Shown here: piece after piece, positions 10,646-55,185 of the stretch
Position numbering within the stretch: the first letter of the stretch is position 1
Layout of the letters: every line of letters starts with the position of its first letter
NCBI GenBank assembly: GCA_016213925.1
Contig: JACQZH010000007.1
Coordinates: forward strand, 30,951-94,950
Reading direction: 5' to 3'
Length of the DNA: 64,000 nucleotides
Source of the DNA: Candidatus Omnitrophota bacterium
GTDB lineage: Bacteria > Omnitrophota > Gorgyraeia > B26-G9
Notes under the pieces: generated by a model
The model's database searches: none
Seen by the model: the letters and a program-made list of their open reading frames with translations, nothing else
What the model was told of the DNA's origin: nothing
Position numbers and translations under genes: made by a program

Positions 10646-11506
10646 ATGAATAAAGAAATAACCGCGACTAAAATAGCAATTTTCAGAAAACGCGAAATCC
10701 GCAGGACTATTCATAAGGATGAATGGTGGTTTTCAGTGATTGATATAGTAGAAGCGCTTACGGGCACTAATAGGGGTAGAAAATATTGGAGCGATCTTAA
10801 GAAAAAGCTTATTGAAGAAGGGTATAGTGAAGTGTCCGAAAAAATCGGACAGTTGAAAATGATAGCTCCAGCTGGGAAATTAAGGCTTACGGATTGCGCT
10901 AATACAGAAACAATGTTTCGCATAGTACAGTCTATCCCATCTCCGAAAGCCGAACCTTTTAAGCGGTGGTTGGCTCGGGTCGGTTACGAGCGAATTCAGG
11001 AAATTGAGCACCCAGAGCTTGCCACAAAAAGGACAAGGGCGTTATATAAGGCTAAAGGGTATAGCGATGAATGGATCGAGAAACGAATGCGTGGAATTGC
11101 TATCCGTGAGGAGTTAACTGAGCAGTGGCAGAAGCGCGGCATTAAAGAGAAAAAGGGATACGAAATATTGACCGCTGACATATCGAAAGCGACATTTGGC
11201 ATGACCCCATTGGCTTACAAGAAACACAAGGGGCTTAAGCGTGAAAATCTGCGGGATCACATGACTGATCTTGAACTTATCTTTTCAATGCTTGGTGAGG
11301 CATCAACGAAAGAGATCGCCATTAATAAAGATGCTCAAGGGTTTGGGGAGAACAAACAGGCGGCGTTTGAAGGCGGCGCTGTGGCTGGCAACGCAAGAAA
11401 AGAGCTTGAGCGCAAAAGCGGCAAAAGAGTTATTAGCAAAGAAAATTATAAAAGATTACCGCAGAATAAGAAGCTGTTAAGAGTGGATAGTAGTTTCGAC
11501 AAGTAG
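10646..11506 (+). CDS. Bro-N domain / DinD-like (DNA-damage-inducible protein D family, phage antirepressor-like) protein.
   Basis: N-terminal IRRTIHKDEWWFSVIDIVEAL ... YWSDL resembles the Bro-N/DinD pattern; the central KHKGLKRENLRDHMTDLEL resembles DinD. Confidence 0.55.
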   Translation: MNKEITATKIAIFRKREIRRTIHKDEWWFSVIDIVEALTGTNRGRKYWSDLKKKLIEEGYSEVSEKIGQLKMIAPAGKLRLTDCANTETMFRIVQSIPSPKAEPFKRWLARVGYERIQEIEHPELATKRTRALYKAKGYSDEWIEKRMRGIAIREELTEQWQKRGIKEKKGYEILTADISKATFGMTPLAYKKHKGLKRENLRDHMTDLELIFSMLGEASTKEIAINKDAQGFGENKQAAFEGGAVAGNARKELERKSGKRVISKENYKRLPQNKKLLRVDSSFDK

Positions 11507-11886: not shown

Positions 11887-13167
11887 ATGAAATTTTTTAA
11901 AAAATATTTTGACAGTTATTGGATTCCTTTTGCCTTCTATATTATTGTTTTGCTGGCGGGAATGTTATGCGGCATGGTTTTTCGTTCGATGTACTTGGTA
12001 TTAGTAATGCAAGCGGTAAATATGTTCTTTTTTGCGGGAATGATCGCTGCTTCCATCTGGAACTTTAGAAAGAAACGCTGGAAAAAAGGGATTTCTAATT
12101 TAATCTTCCCTCTTTTAAACTTTGGCATGATTTTTATAGTTTTGTCTATGTTTGGGCATAGTGGAGATAAATTTGCCGATAACCTGGTAATCCCGGATAA
12201 TATAGATATAGCTGAGCCGGGAAATTGGAACAACTCACCTGAAAGCAAAGAGCAGGATGCATATCAAAAAGATATCTTGGATGCGCTTAACATTGCCGGA
12301 AGTGATGATGTATTGATTAGGGCTAATCTTCCTTCATTAATTAAACTAAACCAGAATGCTCCGGATATTTTTAAACGTTATCTTGCGGTTAGCCCTGCCT
12401 GGAGGCTATATCAGGAGCGCGGGAAATTATTCGCGACGCGAAGATGGATGATAGGTTCTCAATGGCGTTATACGTTACACGGTTATTATACGCGTTTTGA
12501 ATTATTCGATAAGGATATGCCTGATTTTCAAAATAGATTTTGTATTGGATTTTCAGGGAAACCCTGGCATGAAGCGTCAAGAACAACTTTTCTTAAAGAA
12601 GGACAATCAGCAAAATTGATATTATCAAAAGGCAATCAGATGAATGAAAGCCACTGTGTGATTAATGCCGATAGCTTATTTGTAGAAGTGTTTGAACAAT
12701 CTAAATTCAAAGAACGCCGTTTAACCAAGTCAGCTTTAGCTTATCTTGAAAAAGAATTGAACCCGTTGTTAGAACAGCCAACCTGGGGCAAAATCAAGGA
12801 GCTTATTCCCGCTAATAGCATTAAAAACTCAGAGCCGTCAATTAATCTTTGGGGCTCAGGAGGAATATATGATTCTGAGATCTGGGTTAATCCGGGAGAG
12901 CCGGGGATGATCTATCTTAAGGCATTTGAAGTTACTAAAAATACCCGTTTATCTGCTGAAGAGTTAAAGGAAAGTTCTAACGAATGGATCGGATGGTCTG
13001 AAGATTATAATGAAGTATTCTTTTCAAACACCAATTTTATGATTTATGAAGGAGACTGGAGTAAGCCTTACGCGGCGCGTTTTGAAGTATGGTTTGTTCC
13101 TGATTCCAAAGCCCCAGAAAGAAAGCTTATGGAAAGAGTATTCAAGATTGAAGGATGGCAAAGATAA
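11887..13167 (+). CDS. Membrane-anchored hypothetical protein (N-terminal TM helices + about 330-aa soluble domain).
   Basis: Intact 426-aa ORF with no recognised motifs. Confidence 0.5.
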   Translation: MKFFKKYFDSYWIPFAFYIIVLLAGMLCGMVFRSMYLVLVMQAVNMFFFAGMIAASIWNFRKKRWKKGISNLIFPLLNFGMIFIVLSMFGHSGDKFADNLVIPDNIDIAEPGNWNNSPESKEQDAYQKDILDALNIAGSDDVLIRANLPSLIKLNQNAPDIFKRYLAVSPAWRLYQERGKLFATRRWMIGSQWRYTLHGYYTRFELFDKDMPDFQNRFCIGFSGKPWHEASRTTFLKEGQSAKLILSKGNQMNESHCVINADSLFVEVFEQSKFKERRLTKSALAYLEKELNPLLEQPTWGKIKELIPANSIKNSEPSINLWGSGGIYDSEIWVNPGEPGMIYLKAFEVTKNTRLSAEELKESSNEWIGWSEDYNEVFFSNTNFMIYEGDWSKPYAARFEVWFVPDSKAPERKLMERVFKIEGWQR

Positions 13168-13794: not shown

Positions 13795-15169
13795 AATTTA
13801 CAGAAAGCGAAATCGTAGAACTCAAAACATCGACATCAGAACTCAAAGAGGCGATCATTTCTTTGGGAGCCATGTTGAACAAGCATGGCAAGGGCACAGT
13901 TTATTTCGGCATCGGTGATGATGGTGCCGTTTTGGGACAACAGATCGGCAAATCAACCTTAAAAGATGTTTCAAAAGCCATCAGTGATTGGATTGAGCCT
14001 AAGATTTATCCGGATATTCAGGCCAAGAAAATACAAGGCAAGGACTGCATTGTTGTTAAAGCCAGCGGACATGATGTCGTGTATTCGGCCCGCGGCAGTA
14101 CTATCTACGTATGGGAGAGGAAGACAAGAAGCTTTCGGTAGATGAATTGAGGCATTTGGTTGAAAAGAAAAATAACTATGCCTATTCCTGGGGTGCCGAG
14201 CTTTCTGATTTTTCGCTGTCCAAGGTTAGTGCCGCGACCGTTAAGAAGTTCGTTGAGAAAGGACGCAAAGCCGGGAGGATTGAATATTCTTATGATTCGG
14301 CGCGCAATGTCCTTAATAAAATTCACCTGTTTAAAGGCAAAAAATTGCTTAACGCGGGACGGGCGCTCTTTTGTGAAGACAGCGGTGTTGAAGTTCAAGC
14401 GGCTGTCTTTGCCGGAAAAGATAAAATGACGTTCGTCGATATTCAGAGTTTTCGCGGCCCTTTTTTTGATTTGATCGAACGGTGCGAAGTTTACGCCAAA
14501 GAGCACATTAACTGGTGCGCCGATCTTTCCGGGAGCACAAGGATCGAGATTCCGGAGGTTCCTGTCCGTGCTATGAAGGAAGCCATTACAAATTCCCTCT
14601 GCCACAGGGATTTTAACAACCCCAAAAGTAATGAAGTCGCCATCTATCGAGACAGGATCGAAATTTACAACCCCGGGCAGTTTCTTTTTGACCATGATCC
14701 GGATGAGTTCATCGCAGGCCATGGGAAAAGCTATCCTAGAAATCCACTGATTGCGGAAGCTTTTTATCTGGCTAAGGATATTGAGCGGTGAGGCTCAGGG
14801 TTGCGGCGTATCAAGGAAGAATGCGATGCCGCGGGCGTGAAAGTTGCGTTTGAGAAAGTATCTGCCGGGTTTCAGGTAACGTTTTATCGGTTGGAGGGGA
14901 AAATCGTTCCTAAAGAAGCAGAGAAAAGTAGGGAGAAAAGTAGGGAGAAAAGTAGGGAGAAAAGTAGGGAGAAAAGTAGGGAGAAAAGTAGGGAGAAAAT
15001 TCTTAAGCTTGTGATCAGTAATCCGTCGATTACCGCGCAGGAGCTTGCAGACAGCGTAGGCTTGAGCGTTAAGGGGATAGAGAAGGCGATAAGAGTACTT
15101 AAAGAACAGGGTTTATTAAAACGTGTCGGGCCCGATAAGGGCGGGCATTGGGAAGTGGCAAAAGGTTAA
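13791..15169 (+). pseudogene. Schlafen/AlbA_2 + HATPase_c_4 + C-terminal winged-HTH protein ('RecG-like putative DNA-binding' family), disrupted by a frameshift near 14100-14115 and an in-frame TGA at 14789-14791.
   Basis: Three consecutive ORFs (13791-14141, 14111-14791, 14801-15169) together reconstitute the family architecture. The TGA falls in a DIER-TGA-GSGLRRI motif where family members have a conserved Trp (IERWGSG), consistent with a TGG to TGA mutation. Confidence 0.6.
14921..15000 (+). repeat. 12-bp tandem repeat (agtagggagaaa, about 6.6 copies) encoding (SREK)n in the linker before the winged-HTH.
   Basis: Perfect tandem copies read directly from the sequence. Confidence 0.9.
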
Positions 15170-17157: not shown

Positions 17158-19533
17158 GTGGGGAGTTCAATGTCAAAACAAAAAAATAAAGACCAAAGTT
17201 TTTTACTGTGTGAAAAGATAAAGAAACTGACAACACTGCTTACGCAGGAAAAACAAACGGAACAGGCATTAAGAAGCGGGATTAAGGCCTATATTCAAAG
17301 AGAGAAAGTTTTTCGGCAGTTGTTTGATAATATTAAAACAGCTGTTGCTGTTTATAAGGTTGTTGATAACGGCAAGGATTTTGTTTTTGCGGATTTTAAT
17401 CATGCGGCGGAAAAAATTGATAAAATAAAAAAAGAACAGCTTATCGGGAAAAAAGTCAGCAGGGTTTTTCCCGGGGTAAAGGAATTCGGGTTGTTCGATG
17501 TGTTTAAAAGAGTATGGAAAACCGGTAAGCCAGAGCATCACCCTGTGGGTATTTATAAAGATAAAAGAATCCAGGGGTGGAGGGAAAACTATGTGTATAA
17601 AATCCCTTCCGGAGAAATAATCGCTGTATACGAAGACGCTACCGCGCGCAAACAAGCGGAACAGCAGATGAAAGAGCTAGCAAGATTCCCTAAAGAAAAT
17701 CCGAACTTGGTTTTAAGGGTAACCTTTCAAGGCGAGGTTATTTTTAAGAATAAAGCAGTAGACAGTGTTTTAAAGAGTTTAAGGGTCAATCAAAAAGATA
17801 TTAAAGAAATTCTTCCTAAGAATCTAGCCGCGATAATACGCAAAGCGCGAAAAAATAAAAGGCAATCAGTGAATTCAGAGGTTTCGATAAAAGGCAAAAC
17901 ATATTTTTACGCGATATCTGTGGGAGCGCAAGATGCCAATATCTACGGGTTTGATATTACAGAGCGCAAAAAGACAGAAAAAGAATTATATCACAACTCA
18001 AAACAATTACAGGTCCTCAATGAAAATCTGGCAGAGGGCATGGTGTACCAGATCAACAGCGGCAAAGACGGTTTATCGAGAAAATTTTCCTATTTGAGCC
18101 CGGCAGTGAAAAAGCTTCACGGGTTAGAGCCTAGAGAAGTTATTGCAAATCCGCGTATATTATATGAGCAGGTAATAGAACCAGACCGTTCGTTTCTAGC
18201 AAAAAAAGAAAAGCATGCGTTTGAAACGATGAGTAAGCTTGAAGCTGAAGTTAGGATGCGGCTGCCTTCCGGAGATATCCGCTGGCGTCAATTTGTATCA
18301 ACGCCCAGGATTATGGAGGGTGTTGTTTTATGGGATGGGATTGAACTGGACATCACAGAGCGCAAGCAGGCGGAATTAAAATATAAAACTATTTTAGATA
18401 CCGCGATTGATTGTTTTTATATTATTAACGCGCGGCAAGGCAACATCTTGGAGGTTAATGATGCCTACTGTTCTTTGATTGGATATAGCCGTGACGAATT
18501 GCTTAAGATGAGCTTAAAAGATATTGAATATAAAGAAAACCCTAAGAAAATAGCGCGGCATATGCGGTACATAATCAAGAAAGGCGCGGATCATTTTGAA
18601 ACTCGTCACAGGGCCAAAGAAGGAAGGATTATTGATCTTGAAACGAGTGTTAATTATATGAAAGAAAACAAAAAGTTTTTTGTGTTTATGCATGATATTA
18701 CCGAGCGCAAGAAATATGAGAATGACCTTAAAAAAGCTAAGGAAGAGATAGAAAAATGGAATAAAGAGCTGGAAAAAAGAGTGCGAGAAAAAGCGTGTGC
18801 TTTAAAAGAGGCGCAGGAACAGCTTTTTCAGGCGGATAAACTTAGCAGTATCGGGCAGTTGGGCGCGGGTATCGCGCATGAGTTAAACAGCCCGCTTGCC
18901 GGTTTGCTAAGCTTAATCAGGGCTTATAAAAAGAAAAAAAATCCGGATACGGATGAATACGCGGAATTAGCGGAAATGGAATCAGCCTGCGAATACATGG
19001 CAAGAATAGTTAGAGACTTAAATTTATTTTCCCGGCAAACTGTTGGAGAAACGGAAAAAGCGAACTTAAACGAGCTTATTGAGGCTACAATGTCTTTTAG
19101 CATGCATCAGCTTAAAGCTAAAAATATCATAATAATAAAAAACTATAGCCAAGAACTGGCTGTTTTCTTGGCGGACAAGCGCCGTGTTCAGCAGGTAATT
19201 ATTAACCTGTTGGCAAATGCCTGCGATGCTTTATCCGAGCGCGGTATTTTAACAATTACTACCGGAAATATTAATTTAAATGGGCAAGTGTTTGTTGAAT
19301 TGGAGGTTGCGGATAATGGCTGCGGCATAAAAAAAACGGATATAAAGAAAATTTTTGAGCCTTTTTTTACTACAAAACGCCCGGGGAAAGGCGTGGGGCT
19401 TGGATTAGCTGTTGTTTACAGCATTGTTGAGAAGCACAAGGGCAGGATTTTTGTCAAAAGCAAGGAAGGCGCGGGAACAACATTTACGGTGCAGCTTCCG
19501 GCGCTAGTAGAAACAAGGACTGCTGAAAAATAA
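17158..19533 (+). CDS. PAS/PAC-domain sensor histidine kinase.
   Basis: H-box AGIAHELNSPL, N-box NLLANACDAL, G-boxes DNGCGI and GVGLGLAVV. Multiple PAS-like segments upstream. Confidence 0.85.
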   Translation: MGSSMSKQKNKDQSFLLCEKIKKLTTLLTQEKQTEQALRSGIKAYIQREKVFRQLFDNIKTAVAVYKVVDNGKDFVFADFNHAAEKIDKIKKEQLIGKKVSRVFPGVKEFGLFDVFKRVWKTGKPEHHPVGIYKDKRIQGWRENYVYKIPSGEIIAVYEDATARKQAEQQMKELARFPKENPNLVLRVTFQGEVIFKNKAVDSVLKSLRVNQKDIKEILPKNLAAIIRKARKNKRQSVNSEVSIKGKTYFYAISVGAQDANIYGFDITERKKTEKELYHNSKQLQVLNENLAEGMVYQINSGKDGLSRKFSYLSPAVKKLHGLEPREVIANPRILYEQVIEPDRSFLAKKEKHAFETMSKLEAEVRMRLPSGDIRWRQFVSTPRIMEGVVLWDGIELDITERKQAELKYKTILDTAIDCFYIINARQGNILEVNDAYCSLIGYSRDELLKMSLKDIEYKENPKKIARHMRYIIKKGADHFETRHRAKEGRIIDLETSVNYMKENKKFFVFMHDITERKKYENDLKKAKEEIEKWNKELEKRVREKACALKEAQEQLFQADKLSSIGQLGAGIAHELNSPLAGLLSLIRAYKKKKNPDTDEYAELAEMESACEYMARIVRDLNLFSRQTVGETEKANLNELIEATMSFSMHQLKAKNIIIIKNYSQELAVFLADKRRVQQVIINLLANACDALSERGILTITTGNINLNGQVFVELEVADNGCGIKKTDIKKIFEPFFTTKRPGKGVGLGLAVVYSIVEKHKGRIFVKSKEGAGTTFTVQLPALVETRTAEK

Positions 19534-19918: not shown

Positions 19919-20038
19919 AAACGCAAGAAATTAAAAAAGCAAAAGCCTGATAATCGCTTGACAGTAAAGCGGTTAGCAGGTAAAATAATATTCAATATTT
20001 AAACAAGGAATTCGCTAACGGATAGATGGAGAGGTTAT

Positions 20039-20395
20039 ATGAGCCCGGAAATAAAAAAAGCGGAAGATGTGCTGGCAGATATTATTGAAAAGATCAGTAT
20101 TTTGAAAATTTATGAAAAGCGCGCTAAGCGGGAAGATTACTGTGAAATCGTAATCTATAATAAAGACAATGACCAATGGAAGTCTTTGCTGGCTGAAATG
20201 CTTGGTGAAGAAATAACCGCCGCTAAAAGAAATATTACAGAGGAAGATTTCCTTGTGACAAAAATTTACGGCGGAATCGGAGGTAATCAGTCTTTATTCA
20301 GAAAAAAATTCGAAAATCAAACGTTAATCGCGATGTTCTGGCCATGGCAGGACAATGAGCACACGACTTTGAAGATGATCGTTGTGAAAAGATAG
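20039..20395 (+). CDS. Hypothetical protein (118 aa).
   Basis: ORF with plausible spacing to neighbours; no motif recognised. Confidence 0.35.
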   Translation: MSPEIKKAEDVLADIIEKISILKIYEKRAKREDYCEIVIYNKDNDQWKSLLAEMLGEEITAAKRNITEEDFLVTKIYGGIGGNQSLFRKKFENQTLIAMFWPWQDNEHTTLKMIVVKR

Positions 20396-20529
20396 GGCAT
20401 TGGGCGCGCGTTGTCCGGCGCTTACCGGAAAGAAATTAACTTCCCGCAAAAGATTAATTCAGGAGTAATTTTAGACTGCTGCCGAAGATTTTTTTTAAAT
20501 TCCAACAGTTGATATAACGAGTAAAAAAA

Positions 20530-21033
20530 ATGAACGAAAAAACCATCGGTAGAATTTTATATTGCCTGCTTGCCGGGGCGATCTTGGCAGGATTTTTCAA
20601 ATGGAATAAGAGTTATGAAGCTGCTTTTGAGCAGGGTAAACAGGATATCTTGCTTGAAAGCAAAAGAGCATATGTTAAGCCGGAAATATATGAATATCTG
20701 ACAAATATCGAAAAAACCGCGCAATATCACGGCTACAATAACGGACGGAATATGTTCCTGGTCCGGCAAAAGATAGAAGAGGCGCAGCAAAAACGCAAAG
20801 GGCAGCAGGTGAAAAATATTTCTGAAAAGGAAGTATCCGGGGCAAGTGATTTAGATATTGAGCGGATTATGAAAATAGTTATTCCTGAAAAGTATTTTAC
20901 TGTGCGTCAAATGAGCGTTTCCAAAGAAAAAGCAGAAGTATTATTACAGGCGTCATCAAATAAAAATATCGATAGATATAACCTGCGTGCGGCAAAGCCA
21001 GCTATTTACAGAAGTGCATTCAGCGATGTTTAA
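20530..21033 (+). CDS. Hypothetical membrane-anchored protein (167 aa).
   Basis: N-terminal TM helix; no motif recognised. Confidence 0.4.
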   Translation: MNEKTIGRILYCLLAGAILAGFFKWNKSYEAAFEQGKQDILLESKRAYVKPEIYEYLTNIEKTAQYHGYNNGRNMFLVRQKIEEAQQKRKGQQVKNISEKEVSGASDLDIERIMKIVIPEKYFTVRQMSVSKEKAEVLLQASSNKNIDRYNLRAAKPAIYRSAFSDV

Positions 21034-21330
21034 GCACAGTCCCGGCAACAAAGAAATTACCGCGGCATTGATATTCAAGTTCTCCAAATTGTTTGATTCT
21101 TCGAAAGAAGCGTTTATAGAAGCGGAAACGCTGCGGAAAACATTAAGCAGCATTCTGTTTGAATAGTTTTTAAAAATTATCTTGTTTTTAATACTAAAGT
21201 AAAGCAAGCAGAATCCTTGTTCTTATCGCACCGGTTATTTGGTTAATAAATCTTACCCAAGGAAATACATAGAGTTATTGAAAAACAACTTTAACTTAGG
21301 TATACTAGTTATAGGTGGGTTTGTTATAAA

Positions 21331-21744
21331 ATGGGAAAAAAAGGGTTTACTATAATTGAATTAATGGTCGCAGTGATGATAACTGTGGTTGTTTTAACAG
21401 GGTTGCTGCATATACATACACAAACATTTAGCTTGTATGAAGTATCCAGGAATAAGACGATTGCCGTAAATGCCGCCCGCCAGCAATTAGAAAGAATCCG
21501 TAGCCTGCCGTATGATGATGCCAGCTCTACCAATGATGTTTTAGGCCAAAATGGAATCACATTCCCTGTTGTGCTCTTATCCGGTCCTTTGGGAGCGAAT
21601 CCAGGGAGTATCAGCATTGTAGACGACCCGGATTATCCCGGCGATACTAATATAAGGGAAATTATTGTTGCTGTCAGCTGGATAGCGCAAGGAAAAGTTC
21701 CTGGCGGCAGTATTCAGCTGGTTACTCGAAGGGCGAGATATTAA
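21331..21744 (+). CDS. Prepilin-type N-terminal cleavage/methylation domain protein (PilV/GspI-like minor pilin).
   Basis: MGKKGFTIIELMVAVMI: class III signal peptide with G-F-T-I-I-E. Confidence 0.7.
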   Translation: MGKKGFTIIELMVAVMITVVVLTGLLHIHTQTFSLYEVSRNKTIAVNAARQQLERIRSLPYDDASSTNDVLGQNGITFPVVLLSGPLGANPGSISIVDDPDYPGDTNIREIIVAVSWIAQGKVPGGSIQLVTRRARY

Positions 21745-21750
21745 AAAACC

Positions 21751-22434
21751 ATGAAAAAAAAAGATGCGCGGATTCAAGGGTTTTCCCTGGTTGAAACCGT
21801 TGTGGTGATGGCAATTAGCACGGTTGTTGTATATGGAGTTTATATTATTTTATTCTCTTGTTCAGACGCGGTTCAGTTATCAGCGGCGCAGGTAGAATTG
21901 CAAAATAACGCGCAAAGGGCGGTCAGTCGAATAATCCCGGAATTAAGAGAAAGCAATTTGGATAATATTACCGGGTTTCCTGCCTGGGCAGCAACAGCAA
22001 CAGGAACAGCGATTGACCTTATTGATGATCAGGCTGTTGTTTTTAGTTCAGCGCGCGATACTTTAGGAGATTTTCAGATGGATGGGACGGAACATACCGC
22101 GGATTGGCAAGGCGTGGTGGCGTTCTGTCCGTTCGCGGATAATGATGTGCGCCAGCTTAGGCAGTATAGGGTTTTTGGAGCATATGATTTTCCGGTAACT
22201 GTTACTAATGTGGACAGCACGCAGATAACGCTTAATGATAATAGCGGAACCGCAATAATAATAGACAGGGATACGGGCGCGCCGGGAATATATAATGTCT
22301 TAGCGAATAATTTTAACCGGCTGACTTTTATCGCGGGTAACCCGGTAACTATAATTGTTATAACGGATAAAACCACGGTAAAAAACCGAAACGTGTCATT
22401 TAGTTTAACGACTAACGCGGTAATAAAAAATTGA
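21751..22434 (+). CDS. Prepilin-type minor pilin (PilW-like).
   Basis: QGFSLVETVVVMAI prepilin motif. Confidence 0.65.
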   Translation: MKKKDARIQGFSLVETVVVMAISTVVVYGVYIILFSCSDAVQLSAAQVELQNNAQRAVSRIIPELRESNLDNITGFPAWAATATGTAIDLIDDQAVVFSSARDTLGDFQMDGTEHTADWQGVVAFCPFADNDVRQLRQYRVFGAYDFPVTVTNVDSTQITLNDNSGTAIIIDRDTGAPGIYNVLANNFNRLTFIAGNPVTIIVITDKTTVKNRNVSFSLTTNAVIKN

Positions 22435-22486
22435 TAAATCTAAATTTTGGGATAAAAACAGCATCAAGGCAAAAAGGGGTTTAATA

Positions 22487-24184
22487 GTGAAAGCGAAAAA
22501 GAATGGGTCGGTATTAATTTCCGCGCTGATTGTTGCCATAGTTGTTTCAATTGCCGCGGCAAGCATGCTGACGCAGGGGATTGCTTCTAACCGGGTTTCC
22601 GAGCGGGCCGTGGATTCGGCGCAAACATATTATTTAACTGAAGCGGCTATTGAAAGGGCAATCTATGAGCTTAAGTATGGACAAGACATCATTGATGATG
22701 ACGGTAATTCCGGCTCAAACGGCATTCCGGATATATATGAGCAATTGCAGGGGATTAATTCTTTTAATACCGCGGAAGGCGGAGCCGGGCCAATAACCGC
22801 GCCGCCTTTAGCAATGAACTTTACCATTAACGGCCAGGCTGTTAATGTTGAGCTTAGCACAATACTTGTGCCGCATTCTAATTTACTTGAAACGTTTAAC
22901 CCTGCTACTGCTTCCGGCGGTTTTGTCCAGTTTACAGGCGGATGTTACGGAAAACCGCTGTTTTTAGATATCAACGGAGACGGCAACCATGAAATACTTT
23001 TAGGAACGGATGACGGCAATGTGCACTATTATAAATATTATTATGATGAAATAAATAAGCAGTATACGATAGAAGAAGTTTTAGACGCGTTCGGCGATCC
23101 GTTTATCAACGGTTTGGAAGGAAAGATTGTAGGCAGTTTAATCGCGCAGGATATTGATAATGACGGTAATATAAATGTGCTGATAAATACAGACAAAGGG
23201 CATGTATATTGTTATGAAGTAGGCGCTGCTCCGCTTGAACTTCGCTGGGATTATGATGTTCCCGGGGCAAACTCCACTTATTGGGAATTGGCAGTAGGGA
23301 ATTTAGACGGGGATGCTGACCTTGAAATAGTTATGCCTTCAGCTAATAAAGGGCTTACTTTTTTGGATACCAACGGCTCTGTAATCAGAAATATTGCCCC
23401 GACGGGGTTTGGGTATACAGCTCCGCCTTTGATAGGCGATTTTGATAAAGACGGAGTAAACGAGGTTATTGCTGACGACGGAGTAGAGCTGAATTGTTAT
23501 GAGCTGTCCGGAACAAAAAAATGGACATACCGCGTAGGTTTAAAAACCAGTGAAGCTACCGGGGCATTATCGATCGACGGCAGCGGTAAGCATATCGAAG
23601 ATCAAACTTCCAATGGTTTTTGGGTTCCGAGTTCTTCGGCAGGAGATGTGGATGGCGACGGGTTCCCGGAGATCGTGGCTACATCTTTGGGCAACGCTAA
23701 TAACCGCAATACGCATACAGTTATTTTAAGAGATAATAACCGGACTATTGTCGATGCAAAAGATATAAATAAAAACGGTAATAGCACAGAGGTAATTGCC
23801 GTGCCGGATGATATACGCGTAAATTTAACCCCGAGCGCGCTTGCAAACGGCTTTACCGGCGCTGACCTTAGGGGGTTGGTTTCACAGCGTCAGCCTGCGA
23901 TCGGCGACTTAGAAGCGGACGGAAAAGTGGAAATTGCGCATGGAGCGCGCATAGACCAGATTTTTTTATTTAATGTGGATTTTGACAATACTGACGGCGC
24001 GTTTTTAGGAACTGCGGCAACAGAAACTGATGTTGGATGGAATAAGGGCACCTGGGAGATGGTTGATTATACCGGCGATGGGGCAGTAGATTTTCCGGCA
24101 GGGCTTGGCGGCGCCGGCGACATCGCGGCTTCTCCGGTTTTTGCCAATGTTGATAAAGATCAGATCTTAATCAGGACGGCATAG
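22487..24184 (+). CDS. PilX-N-like minor pilin fused to FG-GAP/VCBS beta-propeller repeats, putative pilus-tip adhesin. The reading frame appears to continue in ORF 24196-24402 after a frameshift.
   Basis: N-terminal SVLISALIVAIVVSIAAASMLT (PilX_N-like). Repeated D-x-D/N-x-DG ... E(I/V) FG-GAP motifs (DINGDGNHEIL, DIDNDGNINVL, GDFDKDGVNEVI, GDVDGDGFPEIV, GDLEADGKVEIA). Confidence 0.65.
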   Translation: MKAKKNGSVLISALIVAIVVSIAAASMLTQGIASNRVSERAVDSAQTYYLTEAAIERAIYELKYGQDIIDDDGNSGSNGIPDIYEQLQGINSFNTAEGGAGPITAPPLAMNFTINGQAVNVELSTILVPHSNLLETFNPATASGGFVQFTGGCYGKPLFLDINGDGNHEILLGTDDGNVHYYKYYYDEINKQYTIEEVLDAFGDPFINGLEGKIVGSLIAQDIDNDGNINVLINTDKGHVYCYEVGAAPLELRWDYDVPGANSTYWELAVGNLDGDADLEIVMPSANKGLTFLDTNGSVIRNIAPTGFGYTAPPLIGDFDKDGVNEVIADDGVELNCYELSGTKKWTYRVGLKTSEATGALSIDGSGKHIEDQTSNGFWVPSSSAGDVDGDGFPEIVATSLGNANNRNTHTVILRDNNRTIVDAKDINKNGNSTEVIAVPDDIRVNLTPSALANGFTGADLRGLVSQRQPAIGDLEADGKVEIAHGARIDQIFLFNVDFDNTDGAFLGTAATETDVGWNKGTWEMVDYTGDGAVDFPAGLGGAGDIAASPVFANVDKDQILIRTA

Positions 24185-24389
24185 AAGAAATTGCAATGGC
24201 GTCTTCGAAAGGTACCGGAGGCTTCGGCGGAAACCATTATTTGTATGTATTAAGCTTAAGCGGGGTGAAATTTTCCCGGATAATGATCCAAGCTAACGCT
24301 GTCGGGTATTTTGGCGTAAACCAGCAGTCAAGCATGGTTGTGGATTTAGGAGATCCTTCGACTCCGAATTCGATTGTTGAAATGCAGTC

Positions 24390-25031
24390 TTGGCAGGAAT
24401 GACGATGAAAAATTATTTTAATGCGCTGGTTATTGTTAATACGGCAAGCCTGTTCATTTTTGTTATAGTGCTTGCGGTTTTATTTAAAAATTGTCAGACA
24501 ACTATACGGTTAGGCCAAAATGTCCTTAAAAAAGATGAACCCAGAACTATGATTAAACAAAAACAGGACAGTGTTATATCAAAAGAACAGGGGATATTTA
24601 GTAAGGCAATGATGCTTAAAAATAGCGCCCGTTATAAAGAGGCGATAGCTGCATTTAAAGAAGCGGCAGAAGAATATCCGCAAAGTGTTTTAGCGGACAA
24701 TGCCTATTATCAAATCGCGCAAATTCTAATAGCTGATCCGGTTAAAAAGCCCCGAGAAGCAGCAGCGGTATACCATTTTATTGTCGAGGCTTATCCGAAA
24801 AGCGAAATCGCTGATGATGCGCAATATCAGCTGGCTAAAATAGCCGGCTTGTATTTTAAAGAACCTTTACTCGCCTTAGATGAATACAGAAAGCTTATCG
24901 CGCTTTTTCCGCAAAGCAAATATGTTAAAGAAGCTCAAAGCGCTATTGATTTTTTGACCAGCGACCCAAACGGTGACGGTATCCCGCTTGCTGAAAGTAT
25001 GGGAATAGGCATACCTGACGAGGCTTTTTAA
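24390..25031 (+). CDS. Membrane-anchored TPR-repeat protein (BamD/YbgF-like).
   Basis: TPR-like AYYQIAQ / AQYQLAKI repeats and an N-terminal TM helix. Confidence 0.55.
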   Translation: MAGMTMKNYFNALVIVNTASLFIFVIVLAVLFKNCQTTIRLGQNVLKKDEPRTMIKQKQDSVISKEQGIFSKAMMLKNSARYKEAIAAFKEAAEEYPQSVLADNAYYQIAQILIADPVKKPREAAAVYHFIVEAYPKSEIADDAQYQLAKIAGLYFKEPLLALDEYRKLIALFPQSKYVKEAQSAIDFLTSDPNGDGIPLAESMGIGIPDEAF

Positions 25032-25216
25032 ATGGATAAAGATAATACGTAATAGCAGATATCTTTATGGATAGGCATACATATAGGAGGCATATTGAGG
25101 GTGTTTATTAAGTAAGAAAGAGTAACCAGCAACCAGAGTACAGAAACCAGGAATTAGAAACTAAAAACTGGAGACACTAAAAGTAAATAACTAGTTCAAA
25201 GGAAAAGGAGCGATAA

Positions 25217-25420
25217 ATGAATAAAAAAGTAAAATGCCCGGAGTGCAAAAGCGAGATCGAAGTTGATTCCAGCGTTTCAGTGGGAGATATCGAACAGTGT
25301 TTAAACTGCGACATAGAATTAAAAGTAGTGAGCGTGATTCCGTTAAAGCTTGAAATAATGACTTGCAATTTTTCTGATGATGACGAAATGGATGAGGATG
25401 ACGAGGAAAATATGGATTAA
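25217..25420 (+). CDS. LysW-like zinc-ribbon amino-group-carrier-type protein with acidic C-terminal tail (67 aa).
   Basis: KCPECKSEIEVDSSVSVGDIEQCLNCDIELKVVSVIPLKLE matches the LysW pattern CPECG-x-ELELENPELGELV-x-C-x-DCGAELEVVGLDPLRLE. Followed by DDDEMDEDDEENMD. Confidence 0.55.
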   Translation: MNKKVKCPECKSEIEVDSSVSVGDIEQCLNCDIELKVVSVIPLKLEIMTCNFSDDDEMDEDDEENMD

Positions 25421-25482
25421 TTTTTCTTTGAACAATTAAGTGCAGCGGCCAGGATAAGCGTTAAAGAATAAAGCTGTTTTCT

Positions 25483-25524
25483 AAGAACTCTTTAAATTTT
25501 CAGTTGAAGAGTTCTTGTTTTTTT
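25483..25524 (+). terminator. Rho-independent terminator downstream of the LysW-like gene.
   Basis: aagaactctt ... aagagttctt 10-bp stem followed by a T7 run. Confidence 0.6.
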
Positions 25525-25672
25525 GGTATTTTTTTGGGTTGACGCTTAGGGCAGAATGGGGTAGTATAGGTGTCTATAAGATCAAAAAAGCAGCAACCAG
25601 AAACCAGTAACCAGAGATTAAAGCAAGTTTTTACGTATAGGCGGTAAAATTCAGGAAAGGGAAAGCAGCTAA

Positions 25673-27187
25673 ATGAAAGTTTTTTTAGCAGGATTTAATA
25701 TTGATACAGATGTTTTACGGCAGATGCAAGAAAAATCAGGGCGGCGCCAGGACATAACTCCGGAGGTTATTTGCGCTGCGTACGCGCGTATCAGCCGGGA
25801 TCCGCGTCCGGTTAATGAAATACGCCAGGATGCAAGAAACGAAGTTGAACGTTCCCGCAAATCAAATTCAACGATAATATTTAAAATGGGCCACCACTCT
25901 GTTGCCGAGCACGCGGTATTTAATCTGGATATTTTAGAGGTTTCCCGTTTCGCGATGGAAGAGCTTGAAAAGTTCAGGCTGTGTTCTTATACGGAAAAAT
26001 CGCAGCGCTATATTACGCTGGATAATGATTTTGTTGTTCCAGAGGAGATTAAAAACACTTGTTTTGAAGAGATGTTTATTTCCATGATTGAACAGCAGAA
26101 CAAAGCTTATTTTAAATTATTTGAACGGCTTAAAGAATATATTTTCGAAAAACACGCTCAATTGGCAAAGGACCCCAAAAATCATAATCTGCTGGAAGGA
26201 TGGGCAAAAGAAGATGCCCGTTATGTTACGGCACTGGCAACACATTCGCAAGTTGGGCAGACAATTAACGCGCGTAACCTGGAGCTTTTGCTGCGCAGAT
26301 TTGCTTCGCATCCTTTATCCGAAATAAAACAACTGGGAATTTCTATATATAATCAGATAGCAAGCATTGCTCCTTCTATTGTTATCTTCAATGAGGCGAA
26401 CGAACGTGACCTGAAAACGTATCCGGGTTTAAAAAAAGCGGCAAAAGAGCTGCTTGCAAAGGTGCCGCTTAAGCTTGCGCCGGGCACGCAGCAGAATGTA
26501 CAGCTGGTAGAATTTACGAAAAACGGAGATCTGGCAGTTGCGGCCGCGCTACTGCATGCGGCAACCGAGCTTACCTATGAAGATTGCCGCGTTGTTGCGG
26601 AAAAATTATCGCAAGAAGAGCAGAAAATGCTTTTTAAAAACGTATGGGAAAATATGCAGTTTTATGATTCCATGCTGCGCGAATTTGAATATACGAATCT
26701 CACTTTTAATATTGTTTTATCCGCGGCTTGTTTTGGACAGCTTAAACGCCACCGCATGTCAACAATATCAGCTCAAGAATATGATCCGAACCTGGGTGTT
26801 ACTGTGCCTGAATCGGTTAAAGAAACCGGCATGGAAAAATATTTTCAGGAAATTATTGATAAAACAAATGCTGTCTATAATAATATCAGCCGCGAAATTC
26901 CGATAGCCGCGCCATATATTTTAACTAACGCGCATCGTAAGAGAGTATTATTGCGCCTTAATGCGCGGGAACTTTACCACATATCCAGGTTAAGGGAAGA
27001 TACGCATTCTCAATGGGATATTCGTAATATTGCCGCGGGCATGAGCCAGAAAGCTAAACAGGTAATGCCGCTTACATTCGCTTGCATTGGAGGCAAAGAT
27101 AAGTATAGCGAGATTTACAAAAATCTTTATGGCCGGCTGCCAAAGGTAACTCAAGCTGTACTACCGCAGCCGCGGTCAATTACATAA
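25673..27187 (+). CDS. thyX: Flavin-dependent thymidylate synthase ThyX, tandem-duplicated (two ThyX domains in one 504-aa chain).
   Basis: Domain 1 has the SQRY end of the ThyX motif (RLCSYTEKSQRY). Domain 2 has the RHR beginning (RHRMSTISAQEY). Confidence 0.7.
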   Translation: MKVFLAGFNIDTDVLRQMQEKSGRRQDITPEVICAAYARISRDPRPVNEIRQDARNEVERSRKSNSTIIFKMGHHSVAEHAVFNLDILEVSRFAMEELEKFRLCSYTEKSQRYITLDNDFVVPEEIKNTCFEEMFISMIEQQNKAYFKLFERLKEYIFEKHAQLAKDPKNHNLLEGWAKEDARYVTALATHSQVGQTINARNLELLLRRFASHPLSEIKQLGISIYNQIASIAPSIVIFNEANERDLKTYPGLKKAAKELLAKVPLKLAPGTQQNVQLVEFTKNGDLAVAAALLHAATELTYEDCRVVAEKLSQEEQKMLFKNVWENMQFYDSMLREFEYTNLTFNIVLSAACFGQLKRHRMSTISAQEYDPNLGVTVPESVKETGMEKYFQEIIDKTNAVYNNISREIPIAAPYILTNAHRKRVLLRLNARELYHISRLREDTHSQWDIRNIAAGMSQKAKQVMPLTFACIGGKDKYSEIYKNLYGRLPKVTQAVLPQPRSIT

Positions 27188-34434: not shown

Positions 34435-35565
34435 ATGAAATGGGGAGGAATTGTTTTATTCATAATAGTCTTGGGCATAATAAATGTTTCTTTAGCTCAT
34501 GCCGTTGATTCTTCTGATATTATTGCTATGTGGCGTATGGATGAGGGCAATGGAAGCGTATTATATAATAGTTCAAATGCAGGATCGGCGTATGACGGGG
34601 ATATATACGGGGCAACTTGGACGGACGGGATCTCAGGCAAAGCGTTACAATTCGATGGTACTAGTGCATATGTGAAAATTCGCAGTAATGTTCCGACTCC
34701 AGTATCAGGATATACAATAGAAGCATGGGCATATCTTGATAGAACCCCTGATAACCTTTCAGGAATAATCCTTGAAAAGTGGTTGTCCGGACAAGGCCCT
34801 GCCTGGATATTAAGTGTACTTAATCAGCTTAACGGCATTTCCTTAAATCCAAATTTTGATTGGGGAGTATCCGGATCCGGACTGGGAACCCCGGCAAATT
34901 TTTCGGTAACATTAAATGAATGGCATTATATAGCAGGAACTGTCGCTTATAATCCTGCGACGAATATTGCCACAAGCAGAATCTATGTTGATGGCACGTT
35001 GAAAAATACAGTTATTGCCTCACATTCAGGCACCCCATCGGATTGCAATACTGATGTCGCTATCGGCGTGGGTGATTTTGCTAATTTAGAAAAAAGGCAT
35101 TATTTCCCGGGTAAAATAGATGAAATAACTATTTATAATCGAGCTTTATCCGATGAGGAGATTCAGCAAAACTATTATTCAATACTGGCATATGAAATCG
35201 GCTTAGATATTGATCCTAATTCATTAAATTTAAAAAGTAATGGAGAATATATTACTGGATATTTATGTTTAGACAAAAACATATCTTATTCTCAGGTAAA
35301 TATTAATACCATAAGAATAACCATGCTCAGCATTGAGAATGGAGAAAAAATAACAACTAATATTCCTGCTGTGCCTGGTCTTGAGGGATATTCTGATTAT
35401 GACGGTGATGAAATTATAGATATCATGGTAAAATTTGACCGGGATTCTTTAATTTCTTTACTCTTGTCAAAAGTAACCGAAAAAACAAAATTAGAAATTA
35501 CAGTTGAAGTAGAAACAATTTCCGGCAAGAAACTTATAGGTAAAGATACTATTATTGCAAAATAA
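34435..35565 (+). CDS. Secreted LamG-like (concanavalin A-like lectin/glucanase superfamily) domain protein.
   Basis: Signal peptide. ALQFDGTSAYVKI ... YTIEAWAYL and GKIDEITIYNRALS resemble the LamG_3 pattern. Confidence 0.55.
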   Translation: MKWGGIVLFIIVLGIINVSLAHAVDSSDIIAMWRMDEGNGSVLYNSSNAGSAYDGDIYGATWTDGISGKALQFDGTSAYVKIRSNVPTPVSGYTIEAWAYLDRTPDNLSGIILEKWLSGQGPAWILSVLNQLNGISLNPNFDWGVSGSGLGTPANFSVTLNEWHYIAGTVAYNPATNIATSRIYVDGTLKNTVIASHSGTPSDCNTDVAIGVGDFANLEKRHYFPGKIDEITIYNRALSDEEIQQNYYSILAYEIGLDIDPNSLNLKSNGEYITGYLCLDKNISYSQVNINTIRITMLSIENGEKITTNIPAVPGLEGYSDYDGDEIIDIMVKFDRDSLISLLLSKVTEKTKLEITVEVETISGKKLIGKDTIIAK

Positions 35566-45229: not shown

Positions 45230-45763
45230 ATGAAAGTAAATAAAGCGGTTTTTGCCGGGATGTTGTTTGTGATGATATTATCTAATGTTGCGGGCCTAAA
45301 CGCGCAGGAAGACGCGGTTTTATATAATCATGCCAGGCAGGCGGTTTTAAGCGGGGAAATAGATTTTGCGTTCAATTATTTTTATTCGCTGCTGCAGTAT
45401 TCAGCATCGTCAAGATATTATCAAGATGCGGTTTTTGCCTGCGGAGAATATTATTTTTTAAATAATGATTACTATGTCTCCTCAAAGATGTTTACGGATT
45501 TTATTAAGGCTTGCCCGCAATCAGAAGCATTTCCTTTTGCGATTGTTTATTTGAAGAAAATGGCCGCTTCTTTAGAAGAAGCAAACGCGGCATATGATTT
45601 TAAAAAAAACATCATCAAATTTAAACAGTTAAGCCTGCTTTTTAGCGAGTTTAAGGAATATGAATATGTTTCTCCGTTAGGGTTAAAGTACAAAGCGTTA
45701 TATTATATCGACAGAGCGGAATTTTATATAAATGGGGAGCTGTTTGAAAAAGTATATTTCTAA
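45230..45763 (+). CDS. Secreted hypothetical protein.
   Basis: Signal peptide; Tyr/Phe-rich; no motif recognised. Confidence 0.45.
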   Translation: MKVNKAVFAGMLFVMILSNVAGLNAQEDAVLYNHARQAVLSGEIDFAFNYFYSLLQYSASSRYYQDAVFACGEYYFLNNDYYVSSKMFTDFIKACPQSEAFPFAIVYLKKMAASLEEANAAYDFKKNIIKFKQLSLLFSEFKEYEYVSPLGLKYKALYYIDRAEFYINGELFEKVYF

Positions 45764-48705: not shown

Positions 48706-49671
48706 ATGCGAAATAATAAAAAAAATTTAGCAATAACGGCTTTGTCAGTATTGCTAATTTTTTTAGCAGCAAATAAAGGGTTAGGACAAATCAAAGAAGG
48801 CTGCGATAGTATTAGTACGGAGAATTACGCCAATAAAACGCTTGAATACTATTACTATATACCTGAAGCTGTGGCGGGAAATAAAAATGCTTCATATCCC
48901 TTGCTAATAATGGTTCCGGGGCTCTCCGGAAAAGGCGAGTGGTTGGTTAATAATGAAGTTAAAGAATTCGCAGAACGGGAAAAGTTTGTTGTTATCGCGC
49001 CGTCGTTTGTTTTTGATGAGAGAAACTGGGATACGCTAGAAAGCTACCACTATCCGTCAGTTTGGTCCGGCAAGGCGCTTCTTGAGATAATAAGGCAGTT
49101 TGAAGATAAAAATAATCTTTTTTTGTCGAAGTTTTGTCTTTTTGGGCACTCTGCCGGAGCGCAGTTTGTATTGCGGTTTGCGTTATGGAAACCGCAATTA
49201 TGCGAGGCTTGCGCGGCTCATGCAAGCGGAGGAAGCATAAAGCCGATAGAATATGTAAGCGTTAAATTTTTTGTTACGATAGGCAAACAGGATACTTCTT
49301 TAAGAAAAAAAGTCGCCGAAGAATTTTTTGATACTGCAAAGAAAAATATCATCAAAGTTACATATAAGGAATATGATACCGGCCATGACATGATAAAGGA
49401 GCAATTTAGCGATAGTTTGGACTTTTTCACGCAGGGTAAAATGCCTTTTAACGAAAATAGCGGAGTTTTTGAAAGTATTAATCAAAAGGCGGTTTGTGAA
49501 GGTTTTATTGGAGATACTGTGGTTTATTTAAAAAACGGATGCAAGACAGAAGGCAGGTTTAAGAGCGAAACGGATAAAAAAATTATTTTGGAAATCGCTC
49601 TCGGCAGCACAACCGGGCAAATAGCAATTTCTAAAAACCGGGTTAAATCCATAAAAAGATTAGATAAGTGA
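48706..49671 (+). CDS. Secreted alpha/beta-hydrolase (esterase/lipase) carrying the same C-terminal module of about 50 aa as the TPR protein at 42495.
   Basis: Nucleophile elbow GHSAGAQ, signal peptide, and C-terminal VVYLKNGCKTEGRFKSETD. Confidence 0.7.
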   Translation: MRNNKKNLAITALSVLLIFLAANKGLGQIKEGCDSISTENYANKTLEYYYYIPEAVAGNKNASYPLLIMVPGLSGKGEWLVNNEVKEFAEREKFVVIAPSFVFDERNWDTLESYHYPSVWSGKALLEIIRQFEDKNNLFLSKFCLFGHSAGAQFVLRFALWKPQLCEACAAHASGGSIKPIEYVSVKFFVTIGKQDTSLRKKVAEEFFDTAKKNIIKVTYKEYDTGHDMIKEQFSDSLDFFTQGKMPFNENSGVFESINQKAVCEGFIGDTVVYLKNGCKTEGRFKSETDKKIILEIALGSTTGQIAISKNRVKSIKRLDK

Positions 49672-52922: not shown

Positions 52923-53061
52923 AGTTGTTTTTTAAGCAGGCATTGCTAGGATAATTAAAAACTTGAACAAAGTAACGTATTGGTATATATTAAAGTTAAT
53001 AATTATTTTTACTTCAGCTGTTTAAAAATTAGTTTGGTTTTACGCCAAAGGAGTGAAACAT

Positions 53062-54977: not shown

Positions 54978-55185
54978 AAAGAAAGGAAAACTCTGGACAT
55001 GGGAATGACAAGCGCGGTAAAAATACTTGTAGTGATTTGGACTCTTGTGGGCGTGGGGCTTTGTTTTTATCTGATAGGTTTTCCTGTTTTTATGAAAAAA
55101 AATATCGCGGTTATAGTTAGCCTGCTTGAGCGCATACTGGAAAATTTGGAAAAAAATAAATAAAATAGAAAAAAGAGATAGGACA

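Follow-up and report, generated by a model that had tools for sequence, protein, structure and literature searches.

A minor-pilin operon of an Omnitrophota bacterium and the probable pseudogene of its pilin/FG-GAP propeller fusion

The minor-pilin cluster and its neighbours

The window, i.e., the whole 64 kb stretch of DNA that was analysed, holds three co-oriented ORFs (ORF1 to ORF3; Table 1) where an initial annotation had placed a minor-pilin cluster, and that assignment was borne out by the ORF coordinates, by N_methyl matches in ORF1 and ORF2, and by FG-GAP repeats in ORF3. The putative promoter ahead of ORF1, a consensus match, was the top-scoring plus-strand site within 20000-25800 (10/12 matches). 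Downstream, the TPR gene, whose start was read from the sequence as ATG 24399, overlaps the stop codon of the preceding +2 frame as ATGA and probably belongs to the same operon as the pilin cluster. Its product exceeded the Pfam cut-offs of TPR_6 and YfiO, and the NCBIfam models for YbgF (5.9e-13) and BamD (2.3e-12) matched it under their cut-offs.

Table 1. Features of the minor-pilin cluster, in window coordinates
Feature	Position	Strand	Evidence or remark
Sigma-70-like promoter candidate, TTGAAA-17-TATACT	21278..21306	+	25 nt upstream of ORF1
ORF1, PilV/GspI-like minor (pseudo)pilin, 137 aa	21331..21744	+	N_methyl, weak PilV/ComGE/GspI
ORF2, prepilin-type minor pilin, 227 aa	21751..22434	+	N_methyl; PilW/GspJ position
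ORF3, 5' part of disrupted PilX_N-type pilin/FG-GAP propeller gene, 565 codons	22487..24184	+	Pfam, alignment
Break zone, AGATCAGATC, frame 0 to frame +2	24157..24166	+	Bracketing stops, alignment gap
3' part of propeller gene, frame +2	24163..24402	+	hhalign, BLASTP to family C-terminus
Membrane-anchored TPR protein gene, YbgF/BamD-like	24399..25031	+	Pfam TPR_6, YfiO

ORF1 and ORF2 both encode type IV pilins or pseudopilins with class III signal peptides. Their leaders, MGKKG/FTIIE and MKKKDARIQG/FSLVE, carry the canonical G/F-x-x-x-E prepilin motif, which occurred nowhere else in the six-frame translation of the window (n = 2). N_methyl (PF07963) scored 24.6 bits in ORF1 and 25.8 bits in ORF2 against a Pfam cut-off of 21.2, and TIGR02532 scored 21.0 and 18.0 bits, over its cut-off of 16.3. 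Among the NCBIfam models, ORF1 was most like PilV (E 1.4e-6), ComGE (8.9e-6) and GspI (7.3e-5), each match falling under its family cut-off, while those of ORF2 were confined to the N-terminus; gene order and size suggest that ORF2 is the PilW/GspJ counterpart. The initial annotation had given prepilin signals to all three genes, which holds for ORF1 and ORF2, by motif and by N_methyl, whereas the leader of ORF3 (VKAKKNG/SVLIS) is pilin-like but has no Glu at +5.

As had been stated for the window, a scan of its ORFs produced no pilus assembly ATPase or secretin, nor a platform protein or prepilin peptidase; the scan took in all ORFs of at least 300 aa except a 791-aa ORF at 17158-19533, and most of those of 165-300 aa. 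That 791-aa ORF reads, from its translation, as a PAS histidine kinase. Neither a major pilin nor a GspH-like gene is present in the window, and its genes do not decide between a type IV pilus and a T2SS-like pseudopilus.

The propeller pilin and its rare relatives

The 565-aa product of ORF3, identical to NCBI MBI4845073.1 (HY810_01130, annotated as a hypothetical protein), combines its pilin-like N-terminus with a long series of propeller repeats. Both Pfam repeat models were over their cut-offs, FG-GAP_3 (PF13517) at 46.4 bits against 26.9 and FG-GAP (PF01839) at 32.3 against 22.1, and the scores rose to 51.9 and 36.7 bits when the two parts of the gene were fused into one rejoined protein. 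Six complete D-x-[DN]-x-D-G loops are followed in ORF3 by the start of repeat 7 (FANVDKD) and a premature TAG, in keeping with the earlier count of at least five FG-GAP repeats; the rejoined gene has seven complete calcium loops and one remnant. The PilC/PilY1 propeller family (IPR008707) was absent from the Pfam results for the window protein and eight relatives.

Relatives were sought by an exhaustive HMMER search of 1.84 billion representatives, in which five 50%-identity clusters matched along the whole length; the family is rare. Four intact relatives of 673-805 aa (P0018, P0021, P0034 and P0099) have the same architecture and are colinear and full-length, and the family alignment comprises nine sequences, i.e., the window protein, one fragment and seven full-length relatives. 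No relative that spans the junction of the two parts exceeds 34% identity, the only closer one being P0017, a 196-aa N-terminal fragment (52%). Searches of genome contigs with the window/P0017 N-terminal alignment, and of metagenome contigs with the A3 and A2 alignments, found no closer relatives; with A3 the genome contigs gave a Gemmatimonadota MAG only, plus helix-only matches in Viridibacillus. Word-indexed homolog searches returned generic FG-GAP proteins only; one with the C-terminal 204 aa had no match, the protein itself included. The Gemmatimonadota contig has two paralogs, each the last gene of a cluster made up of GspH-like, PilV-like, giant N_methyl and PilX_N-propeller genes, with a PAS kinase and a sigma-54 regulator between the two clusters, a setting in line with a tip complex.

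The family alignment also bears on the N-terminus of ORF3, for which a PilX-type identity had been proposed. PilX_N (PF14341) did not match the window protein even at E<=1, but it matched four of the nine aligned sequences (best E-value 6.9e-9), with P0018 (31.3 bits), P0021 (27.7) and P0034 (37.6) exceeding its cut-off of 25.5. The window N-terminus is colinear with these homologs, and no family member departs from Gly7 (the -1 position) or Leu14. The proposed fusion of a PilX-type N-terminus with FG-GAP repeats is upheld for the repeats by the FG-GAP models, and its PilX-type half is probable through the homologs. GspK (NCBIfam NF037980) matched residues 6-63 weakly (E 1.2e-4, 21.7 bits against a cut-off of 130); in position and N-terminus ORF3 is GspK-like, yet it is not a member of GspK. 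The comparisons support the third gene as one for a predicted PilX/GspK-type modular tip pilin fused to an FG-GAP propeller.

Each of the intact homologs has eight calcium loops in the alignment. The AF2 model of P0021, of moderate confidence (pLDDT 67.6, pTM 0.69), has eight groups of four strands and its best matches are 8-bladed propellers, generic ones only when Foldseek was run against the PDB. In the intact relatives, a pilin helix of ~60 residues is followed by a propeller of eight predicted blades and, at the C-terminus, by a short beta segment that is conserved. Neither the full protein nor a 'mini-pilin' profile stripped of the propeller had a meaningful match in PDB sequence searches, so that a role of the C-terminal strands in completing a pilin fold like that of PilX/GspK can only be inferred. 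A structure prediction of the fused window protein, as the initial annotation had proposed, was run with AF2 on the single sequence of 636 aa and was uninformative (pLDDT 33).

The break in the third gene and its origin

The frame does change next to the AAA at 24155-24160 to which a shift had originally been assigned. Stops in frame +2 (TGA at 24151-53 and TAA at 24154-56) and the start of the DLNQDG loop at 24163 confine the switch to 24157-24166, adjoining that AAA, and ORF3, in frame 0, runs on to its TAG at 24182-84. At the break, the remnant of the repeat-7 calcium loop (NVDKD) is joined out of frame to the repeat-8 loop DLNQDG, and 54-67 residues of blade 7 are absent exactly there by comparison with the four intact homologs (58, 60, 67 and 54 residues against P0018, P0021, P0034 and P0099 in alignment A1), so that the window gene does not encode a closed 8-bladed propeller. 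Outside this gap the window protein is colinear with its homologs, beginning at the N-terminal helix and running to the final residues of ORF 24196-24402, and tblastn did not find the missing segment elsewhere in the window (best E 0.13). The "apparent 1-nt shift" of the initial annotation was therefore mistaken, about one whole repeat (54-67 codons) being gone from the junction.

Beyond the break, the frame +2 part holds the repeat-8 loop DLNQDGIEEIA, the GNHYLYVL sequence, the final blade and the conserved strands of the C-terminus up to ...EMQSWQE. The 81-aa +2 frame aligned with the family profile over 80 columns, up to its last residue but one (hhalign E 4.5e-6), and with P0018 (BLASTP E 1e-8). 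These matches to the family C-terminus agree with the original observation that the FG-GAP pattern continues there in another frame, and they support ORF 24196-24402 as the displaced 3' end of the ORF3 gene; in the NCBI annotation it is a separate 68-aa CDS, HY810_01135.

We think it probable that the three genes form a type IV filament minor-pilin operon, the third having lost about one repeat internally and hence being, most likely, an inactive pseudogene. An internal deletion of roughly 54-67 codons, of a length not divisible by three, would have fused the repeat 7 loop to the repeat 8 loop out of frame. With translation stopping after 565 codons, the product would lack its last two blades (7 and 8) as well as the conserved strands of the C-terminus, on which account the gene is most likely inactive. 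The lesion looks recent, since the frame beyond it has stayed open and its overlap with the start of the next gene persists. As for its mechanism, a microhomology deletion between two AGATC copies is ruled out, as it would leave one copy and two are present, and the perfect AGATCAGATC at the junction is not explained by a simple deletion.

The initial annotation had left the gene as phase-variable, pseudogenised or mis-assembled, and it is the second of these that the data support best. Its first option, phase variation or a simple 1-nt frameshift acting as a reversible on/off switch of an adhesin, drew on the change of frame near an AAA, and phase variation is a classic trait of loci for pilus adhesins and pilin-associated genes. 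Yet neither a multi-copy repeat nor a homopolymer of more than 3 nt occurs at the site: Tandem Repeats Finder gave 0 rows, only the two AGATC copies were seen and the longest homopolymer was AAA. Slippage cannot restore a lost blade of 54-67 residues, and this reading is effectively refuted. Just as improbable is a gene that functions despite the break, whether through a programmed -1 ribosomal frameshift, which the passage from frame 0 to frame +2 formally is, or as a two-piece protein of 565 aa and 68 aa, the shorter ORF having its own ATG at 24196. A -1 programmed frameshift is discounted for want of a slippery heptamer, there being no X XXY YYZ in the only permissive interval, 24157-24181, as read from the sequence; moreover, no intact relative shifts frame there, and the frameshifted product would still be one blade short. 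The two-piece protein is opposed by the want of a convincing ribosome-binding site ahead of the ATG in the same reading.

Two explanations that suppose a gene whole until recently, or whole still, fare better. Mis-assembly is less likely than a genuine deletion, and we hold it to be an unlikely, if sizeable, alternative that the true genome carries an intact 8-blade gene and that 24157-24166 records a chimeric join or a deletion allele present in a minority. In its favour, the sequence is a short-read-style NCBI MAG contig of 95 kb, the break is flanked by two copies of one repeated protein motif, and the frame beyond it is conserved, uninterrupted and still coupled to the next gene, as would be expected of a functional gene. 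Against it, the DNA repeats inside the gene are of at most 25 nt at 68-92% identity, too little for the collapse of a k-mer graph, and the junction has no Ns and no low-complexity tract. Should the gene prove continuous, it would be restored by about 170-200 nt rather than by 1 nt. Improbable, albeit less so than any reversible or programmed frameshift, is a native 7-blade form in the Omnitrophota lineage (636 aa, ...FANVDKDLNQDG...), its sole lesion being a recent 5-nt tandem duplication that turned AGATC into AGATCAGATC. Deleting one AGATC does give a single 636-aa frame, slippage typically leaves perfect tandem duplications such as this one of 5 nt, and seven blades are the norm for the FG-GAP propeller of integrins. 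Under this scheme, however, the loss of a blade and an indel must have happened independently, at one spot and within a few bases of each other in a 1.9-kb gene; the intact relatives have eight loops in four of four cases, and the restored junction has remnants of two adjacent calcium loops (NVDK and DLNQDG) instead of one clean loop. A pseudogene made by internal deletion is accordingly the most likely state of the third gene.

Comparison with known pilins and biological meaning

The operon would encode a PilV/GspI-like pilin, a second prepilin that takes the PilW/GspJ position, and a pilin of PilX/GspK type with a large calcium-loop FG-GAP beta-propeller. By analogy to GspI-J-K and FimU-PilVWX-PilY1, the three products would cap a filament, prime its assembly and expose the propeller at its tip, where it would act as an adhesin dependent on Ca2+; adhesion, calcium binding and placement at the tip are all predictions. 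With PilX and GspK the third gene shares an N-terminal Gly(-1), a hydrophobic helix, the want of Glu5 and a place last after PilV/GspI-like and PilW/GspJ-like genes, although the window copy is truncated and below both models. A foreign domain also interrupts the pilin beta-sheet of GspK (PMC8179133), but there the extra module is an alpha-domain and here an 8-bladed FG-GAP propeller of ~500 residues. PilY1/PilC is a calcium-dependent beta-propeller at the pilus tip with the minor pilins, its gene directly after pilX (PMC8179133; PMC7541494). The window gene sits in the combined pilX and pilY1 position; PilY1, however, is not a pilin and has a propeller of another family (IPR008707), whereas the window gene places pilin and propeller in one covalent chain.

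Filament-displayed adhesive modules grafted onto pilins are also known from the modular type IV pilins (S. sanguinis PilB-vWA and PilC-lectin, CofB and ComZ). In their catalogue, Raynaud et al. 2021 list pilin plus FG-GAP (IPR012902-IPR013517) as a simple architecture of five proteins, and IPR013517 occurs 13 times in Dataset S1; none of these FG-GAP pilins has been characterised. That catalogue is keyed on N_methyl (IPR012902), whereas the window family has a PilX_N-type N-terminus without Glu5. The 8-bladed beta-propeller biofilm adhesins Bap1/RbmC of Vibrio cholerae are alike in fold only, Bap1 being a secreted matrix protein without a pilin helix.

For annotation, the consequence is that the hypothetical-protein CDSs HY810_01130 and HY810_01135 are one disrupted gene and merit a pseudogene flag or a check against reads. 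The intact relatives suggest, from their sequences, how a pilin of the pilus tip may bring a propeller adhesin with it. The wider significance is modest, as the function is predicted and fusions of pilin and FG-GAP are already catalogued. Type IVa pilus genes are common across Omnitrophota, and a propeller pilin is a simple candidate for the cell attachment that has been proposed for these pili (PMC10066038). We suggest tentatively, at somewhat less than even confidence, that the intact relatives and the broken copy constitute an undescribed and very rare family, scattered across distant phyla (Omnitrophota and Gemmatimonadota), whose members incorporate an 8-bladed FG-GAP propeller in a tip pilin of PilX type and unite the roles of PilX (priming) and PilY1 (adhesin) in one polypeptide. 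If so, the window would show the ongoing loss of a host-attachment adhesin from a possibly host-dependent nanobacterium.

The cluster and its neighbours

Three successive genes and a short ORF in another frame form the cluster (see table), in a region of ~40-44% G+C where the + strand carries nearly all genes. The stop of the short ORF overlaps the ATG of the following TPR gene (ATGA). The 565-aa ORF3 and the 68-aa short ORF are identical to MBI4845073.1 (HY810_01130) and MBI4845074.1 (HY810_01135), both labelled 'hypothetical protein' at NCBI and derived from a 95,232-bp contig of a Candidatus Omnitrophica/Omnitrophota MAG.

Coordinates of features in the window
Feature	Position	Strand	Remarks
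986-aa ORF	6650-9610	-	no Pfam match at E<=1e-3
Bro-N domain protein	10646-11506	+	
426-aa ORF	11887-13167	+	no Pfam match at E<=1e-3
HATPase_c_4 (RecG C-terminal-like) protein	14111-14791	+	
sigma-70-like site TTGAAA-17-TATACT	21278-21306	+	consensus match upstream of ORF1
ORF1	21331-21744	+	
ORF2	21751-22434	+	
ORF3	22487-24184	+	
Short ORF	24196-24402	+	frame other than that of ORF3
TPR gene	start ATG 24399	+	
LysW-like zinc-ribbon protein	25217-25420	+	67 aa; PF21344, E 7.2e-10
Terminator-like hairpin	25482-25517		14-bp stem, after LysW-like gene
ThyX	25673-27187	+	504 aa; Pfam Thy1 in two stretches, E 3.7e-58
Laminin_G_3 (concanavalin-like lectin) protein	34435-35565	+	376 aa
701-aa ORF	45732-47837	+	no Pfam match at E<=1e-3
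321-aa ORF	48706-49671	+	no Pfam match at E<=1e-3
Fused ECF sigma factor / zf-HC2 anti-sigma-like ORF	52116-52922		near PilZ pair
PilZ proteins (two)	53053-53742; 55126-55875	+	two PilZ matches each, c-di-GMP receptor type; E 1e-24, 5.6e-29

The initial annotation had ascribed prepilin signals to the cluster, and ORF1 (MGKKG/FTIIE, 24.6 bits) and ORF2 (...RIQG/FSLVE, 25.8 bits) do pass both Pfam N_methyl (cut-off 21.2 bits) and TIGR02532; a six-frame regular-expression scan of the whole 64 kb found no third N_methyl-type motif. ORF1 resembles PilV, ComGE and GspI, every score falling under the family cut-off. Since the pilin-family matches of ORF2 are confined to its N-terminus, it is by position and size that we infer it to be PilW/GspJ-like. 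ORF3 starts VKAKKNG/SVLISALIV, with Gly at -1 and no Glu at +5, and has weak matches to GspK (E 1.2e-4, residues 6-63) and ComGG, while its body passes FG-GAP_3 and FG-GAP (Pfam) and carries D-x-[DN]-x-D-G-x-x-E-[IV] loops at residues 161, 222, 272, 318, 387 and 474.

Elsewhere, the LysW-like protein, with its strongly acidic tail (DDDEMDEDDEENMD), has its gene by itself in the interval from the TPR gene to thyX, lysine/arginine biosynthesis partners being absent nearby. A usual ThyX is about half as long as the window's, which, with its two Thy1 matches, looks like a flavin-dependent thymidylate synthase that has been fused or duplicated. The Bro-N and HATPase_c_4 genes lie among unannotatable ORFs, and their region may be a mobile element or phage remnant. 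LamG-pilin fusions occur in related phyla and have a prepilin motif, unlike the Laminin_G_3 protein here.

The frame break and the intact form

Stops at 24151-53 and 24154-56 interrupt frame +2, whose DLNQDGIEEIA loop begins at 24163, so the frame switch is confined to 24157-24166 (AGATCAGATC), beside the AAA at which a 1-nt shift near 24155 had been suspected; ORF3 itself terminates at TAG 24182-84. To this extent the initial annotation is borne out. A HMMER search with the rejoined sequence (ORF3 plus its frame +2 continuation) against 1.84 billion representative proteins (E<=0.001) gave 2,284 matches, almost all generic FG-GAP proteins, and among the best 150, the window's own two pieces excluded, five matched from the N-terminal helix onward: the fragment P0017 (196 aa, 52% identity) and the full-length P0018 (763 aa), P0021 (673 aa), P0034 (805 aa) and P0099 (709 aa). 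The window protein aligns colinearly with these four over the whole span between Gly7 and the ...SW-x-E motif at the C-terminus. Both flanks of the break pair unambiguously (left, DFPAGLGGAGDIAASPVFANVDKD with homolog DFPAGIPGTGDVHGPPNFVNVDDD; right, LNQDGIEEIAMASSKGTGGFGGNHYLYVLSL with homolog LNNDGFMEIVGASDRHHGVGGSANQYMYSYSL), and the stretch between them, wholly missing from the window, is 58, 60, 67 and 54 residues long in the homologs. Judged by this alignment, the lesion is no 1-nt slip: about one repeat has been lost, leaving a junction that is out of frame; the missing segment was not found elsewhere in the window. The 81 aa of frame +2 align with the final 80 columns of the family profile (hhalign E 4.5e-6), and also with P0018 (BLASTP E 1e-8), which by homology identifies the short ORF as ORF3's displaced 3' end, in line with the initial annotation.

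The homologs carry eight Ca-type loops, and an AF2 model of P0021 from a nine-sequence family alignment (pLDDT 67.6, pTM 0.69) has a helix (residues 7-66), two strands (~102-119), eight groups of four strands and three C-terminal strands (631-672). On this layout the window product would end within blade 7, without blade 8 and the conserved C-terminal strands. By analogy with GspK, in which a foreign domain is inserted in the pilin sheet (PMC8179133), the C-terminal strands may pair with the N-terminal ones and complete the pilin head. A 'mini-pilin' profile found no relative in the PDB. Propeller folding needs ring closure and, as the C-terminal strands are also lost, the truncated product is unlikely to fold in this genome.

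Readings of the lesion

A real deletion in the window gene is probable, and the copy is most likely a pseudogene. That frame +2 is open for 82 codons (a ~0.5% chance by our base-composition estimate), conserved and coupled to the next gene would suit an assembly artefact as well as a very recent event, but an artefact is unlikely: DNA repeats inside the gene (<=25 nt, 68-92% identity) are too short for k-mer collapse, and there are no Ns or tandem arrays at the junction. A native seven-bladed form that later acquired a 5-nt AGATC duplication would account for the perfect tandem repeat, removal of one copy restoring a 636-aa frame, but we consider it highly improbable because two events must coincide within a few bases. 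The phase variation offered as an option by the initial annotation fails, there being no repeat tract and no slippage that could restore the missing blade; programmed frameshifting, which could not restore it either, lacks a slippery heptamer in the permissive interval.

The family among pilins

A single Gemmatimonadota MAG (GCA_003697105.1) encodes P0034 and the P0099 cluster (P0205, P0206) as paralogs. On a 59-kb contig each comes last in a cluster of the same order: first a GspH-like protein with N_methyl (198 or 170 aa), then a PilV-like one (196 or 147 aa), next a giant N_methyl protein (1798 or 1157 aa) and finally the PilX_N-propeller protein. Between the two clusters lie genes for a PAS histidine kinase and for a sigma-54 response regulator. 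The order within each cluster is that of fimU-pilV-pilW-pilX(-pilY1) and, as three homologs pass the PilX_N cut-off, the family occupies the PilX + PilY1 position. The PilX-type N-terminus claimed for ORF3 is seen at the level of the family; the window protein itself gave no PilX_N match even at E<=1. In the window the cluster is shorter and lacks the GspH-like gene. The giant protein in the PilW/GspJ position (locus L003, 4523-9919 and 19376-22418; locus L006, 2079-5516; 1798 aa and 1145-1157 aa) starts with N_methyl, matches Big_7 faintly and would give the putative tip complex a second very large module. In three Viridibacillus spp. genomes (L010-L012, 10001-10180) a match to the family helix only (residues 5-64, 37% identity) is probably a ComGG/PilX_N-type competence pseudopilin.

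ORF scans of the window found no pilus ATPase, platform protein, secretin or prepilin peptidase, as the initial annotation had said of the ATPase and the secretin; the machinery may be elsewhere in the genome, since every Omnitrophota class is reported to have type IVa pilus genes commonly (PMC10066038).

What is observed are the prepilin signals of ORF1 and ORF2, the PilX-type N-terminus of the family, the FG-GAP propeller with its Ca-type loops, the gene order and the disruption. That a pilin can carry a grafted functional module is already an established concept, the modular pilin. Architectures already catalogued include N_methyl + FG-GAP (IPR012902-IPR013517), FG-GAP + PilY1 and one PilX_N-PilY1 fusion (PMC8179133, Datasets S1/S2), from which this very rare family differs in its PilX_N-type N-terminus, eight-bladed propeller and, probably, insertion topology. 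Nothing in it requires a new principle. By analogy with GspI-J-K and FimU-PilVWX-PilY1, the three proteins would form a filament-capping, assembly-priming complex, and the propeller would be a Ca2+-dependent adhesin presented at the tip.
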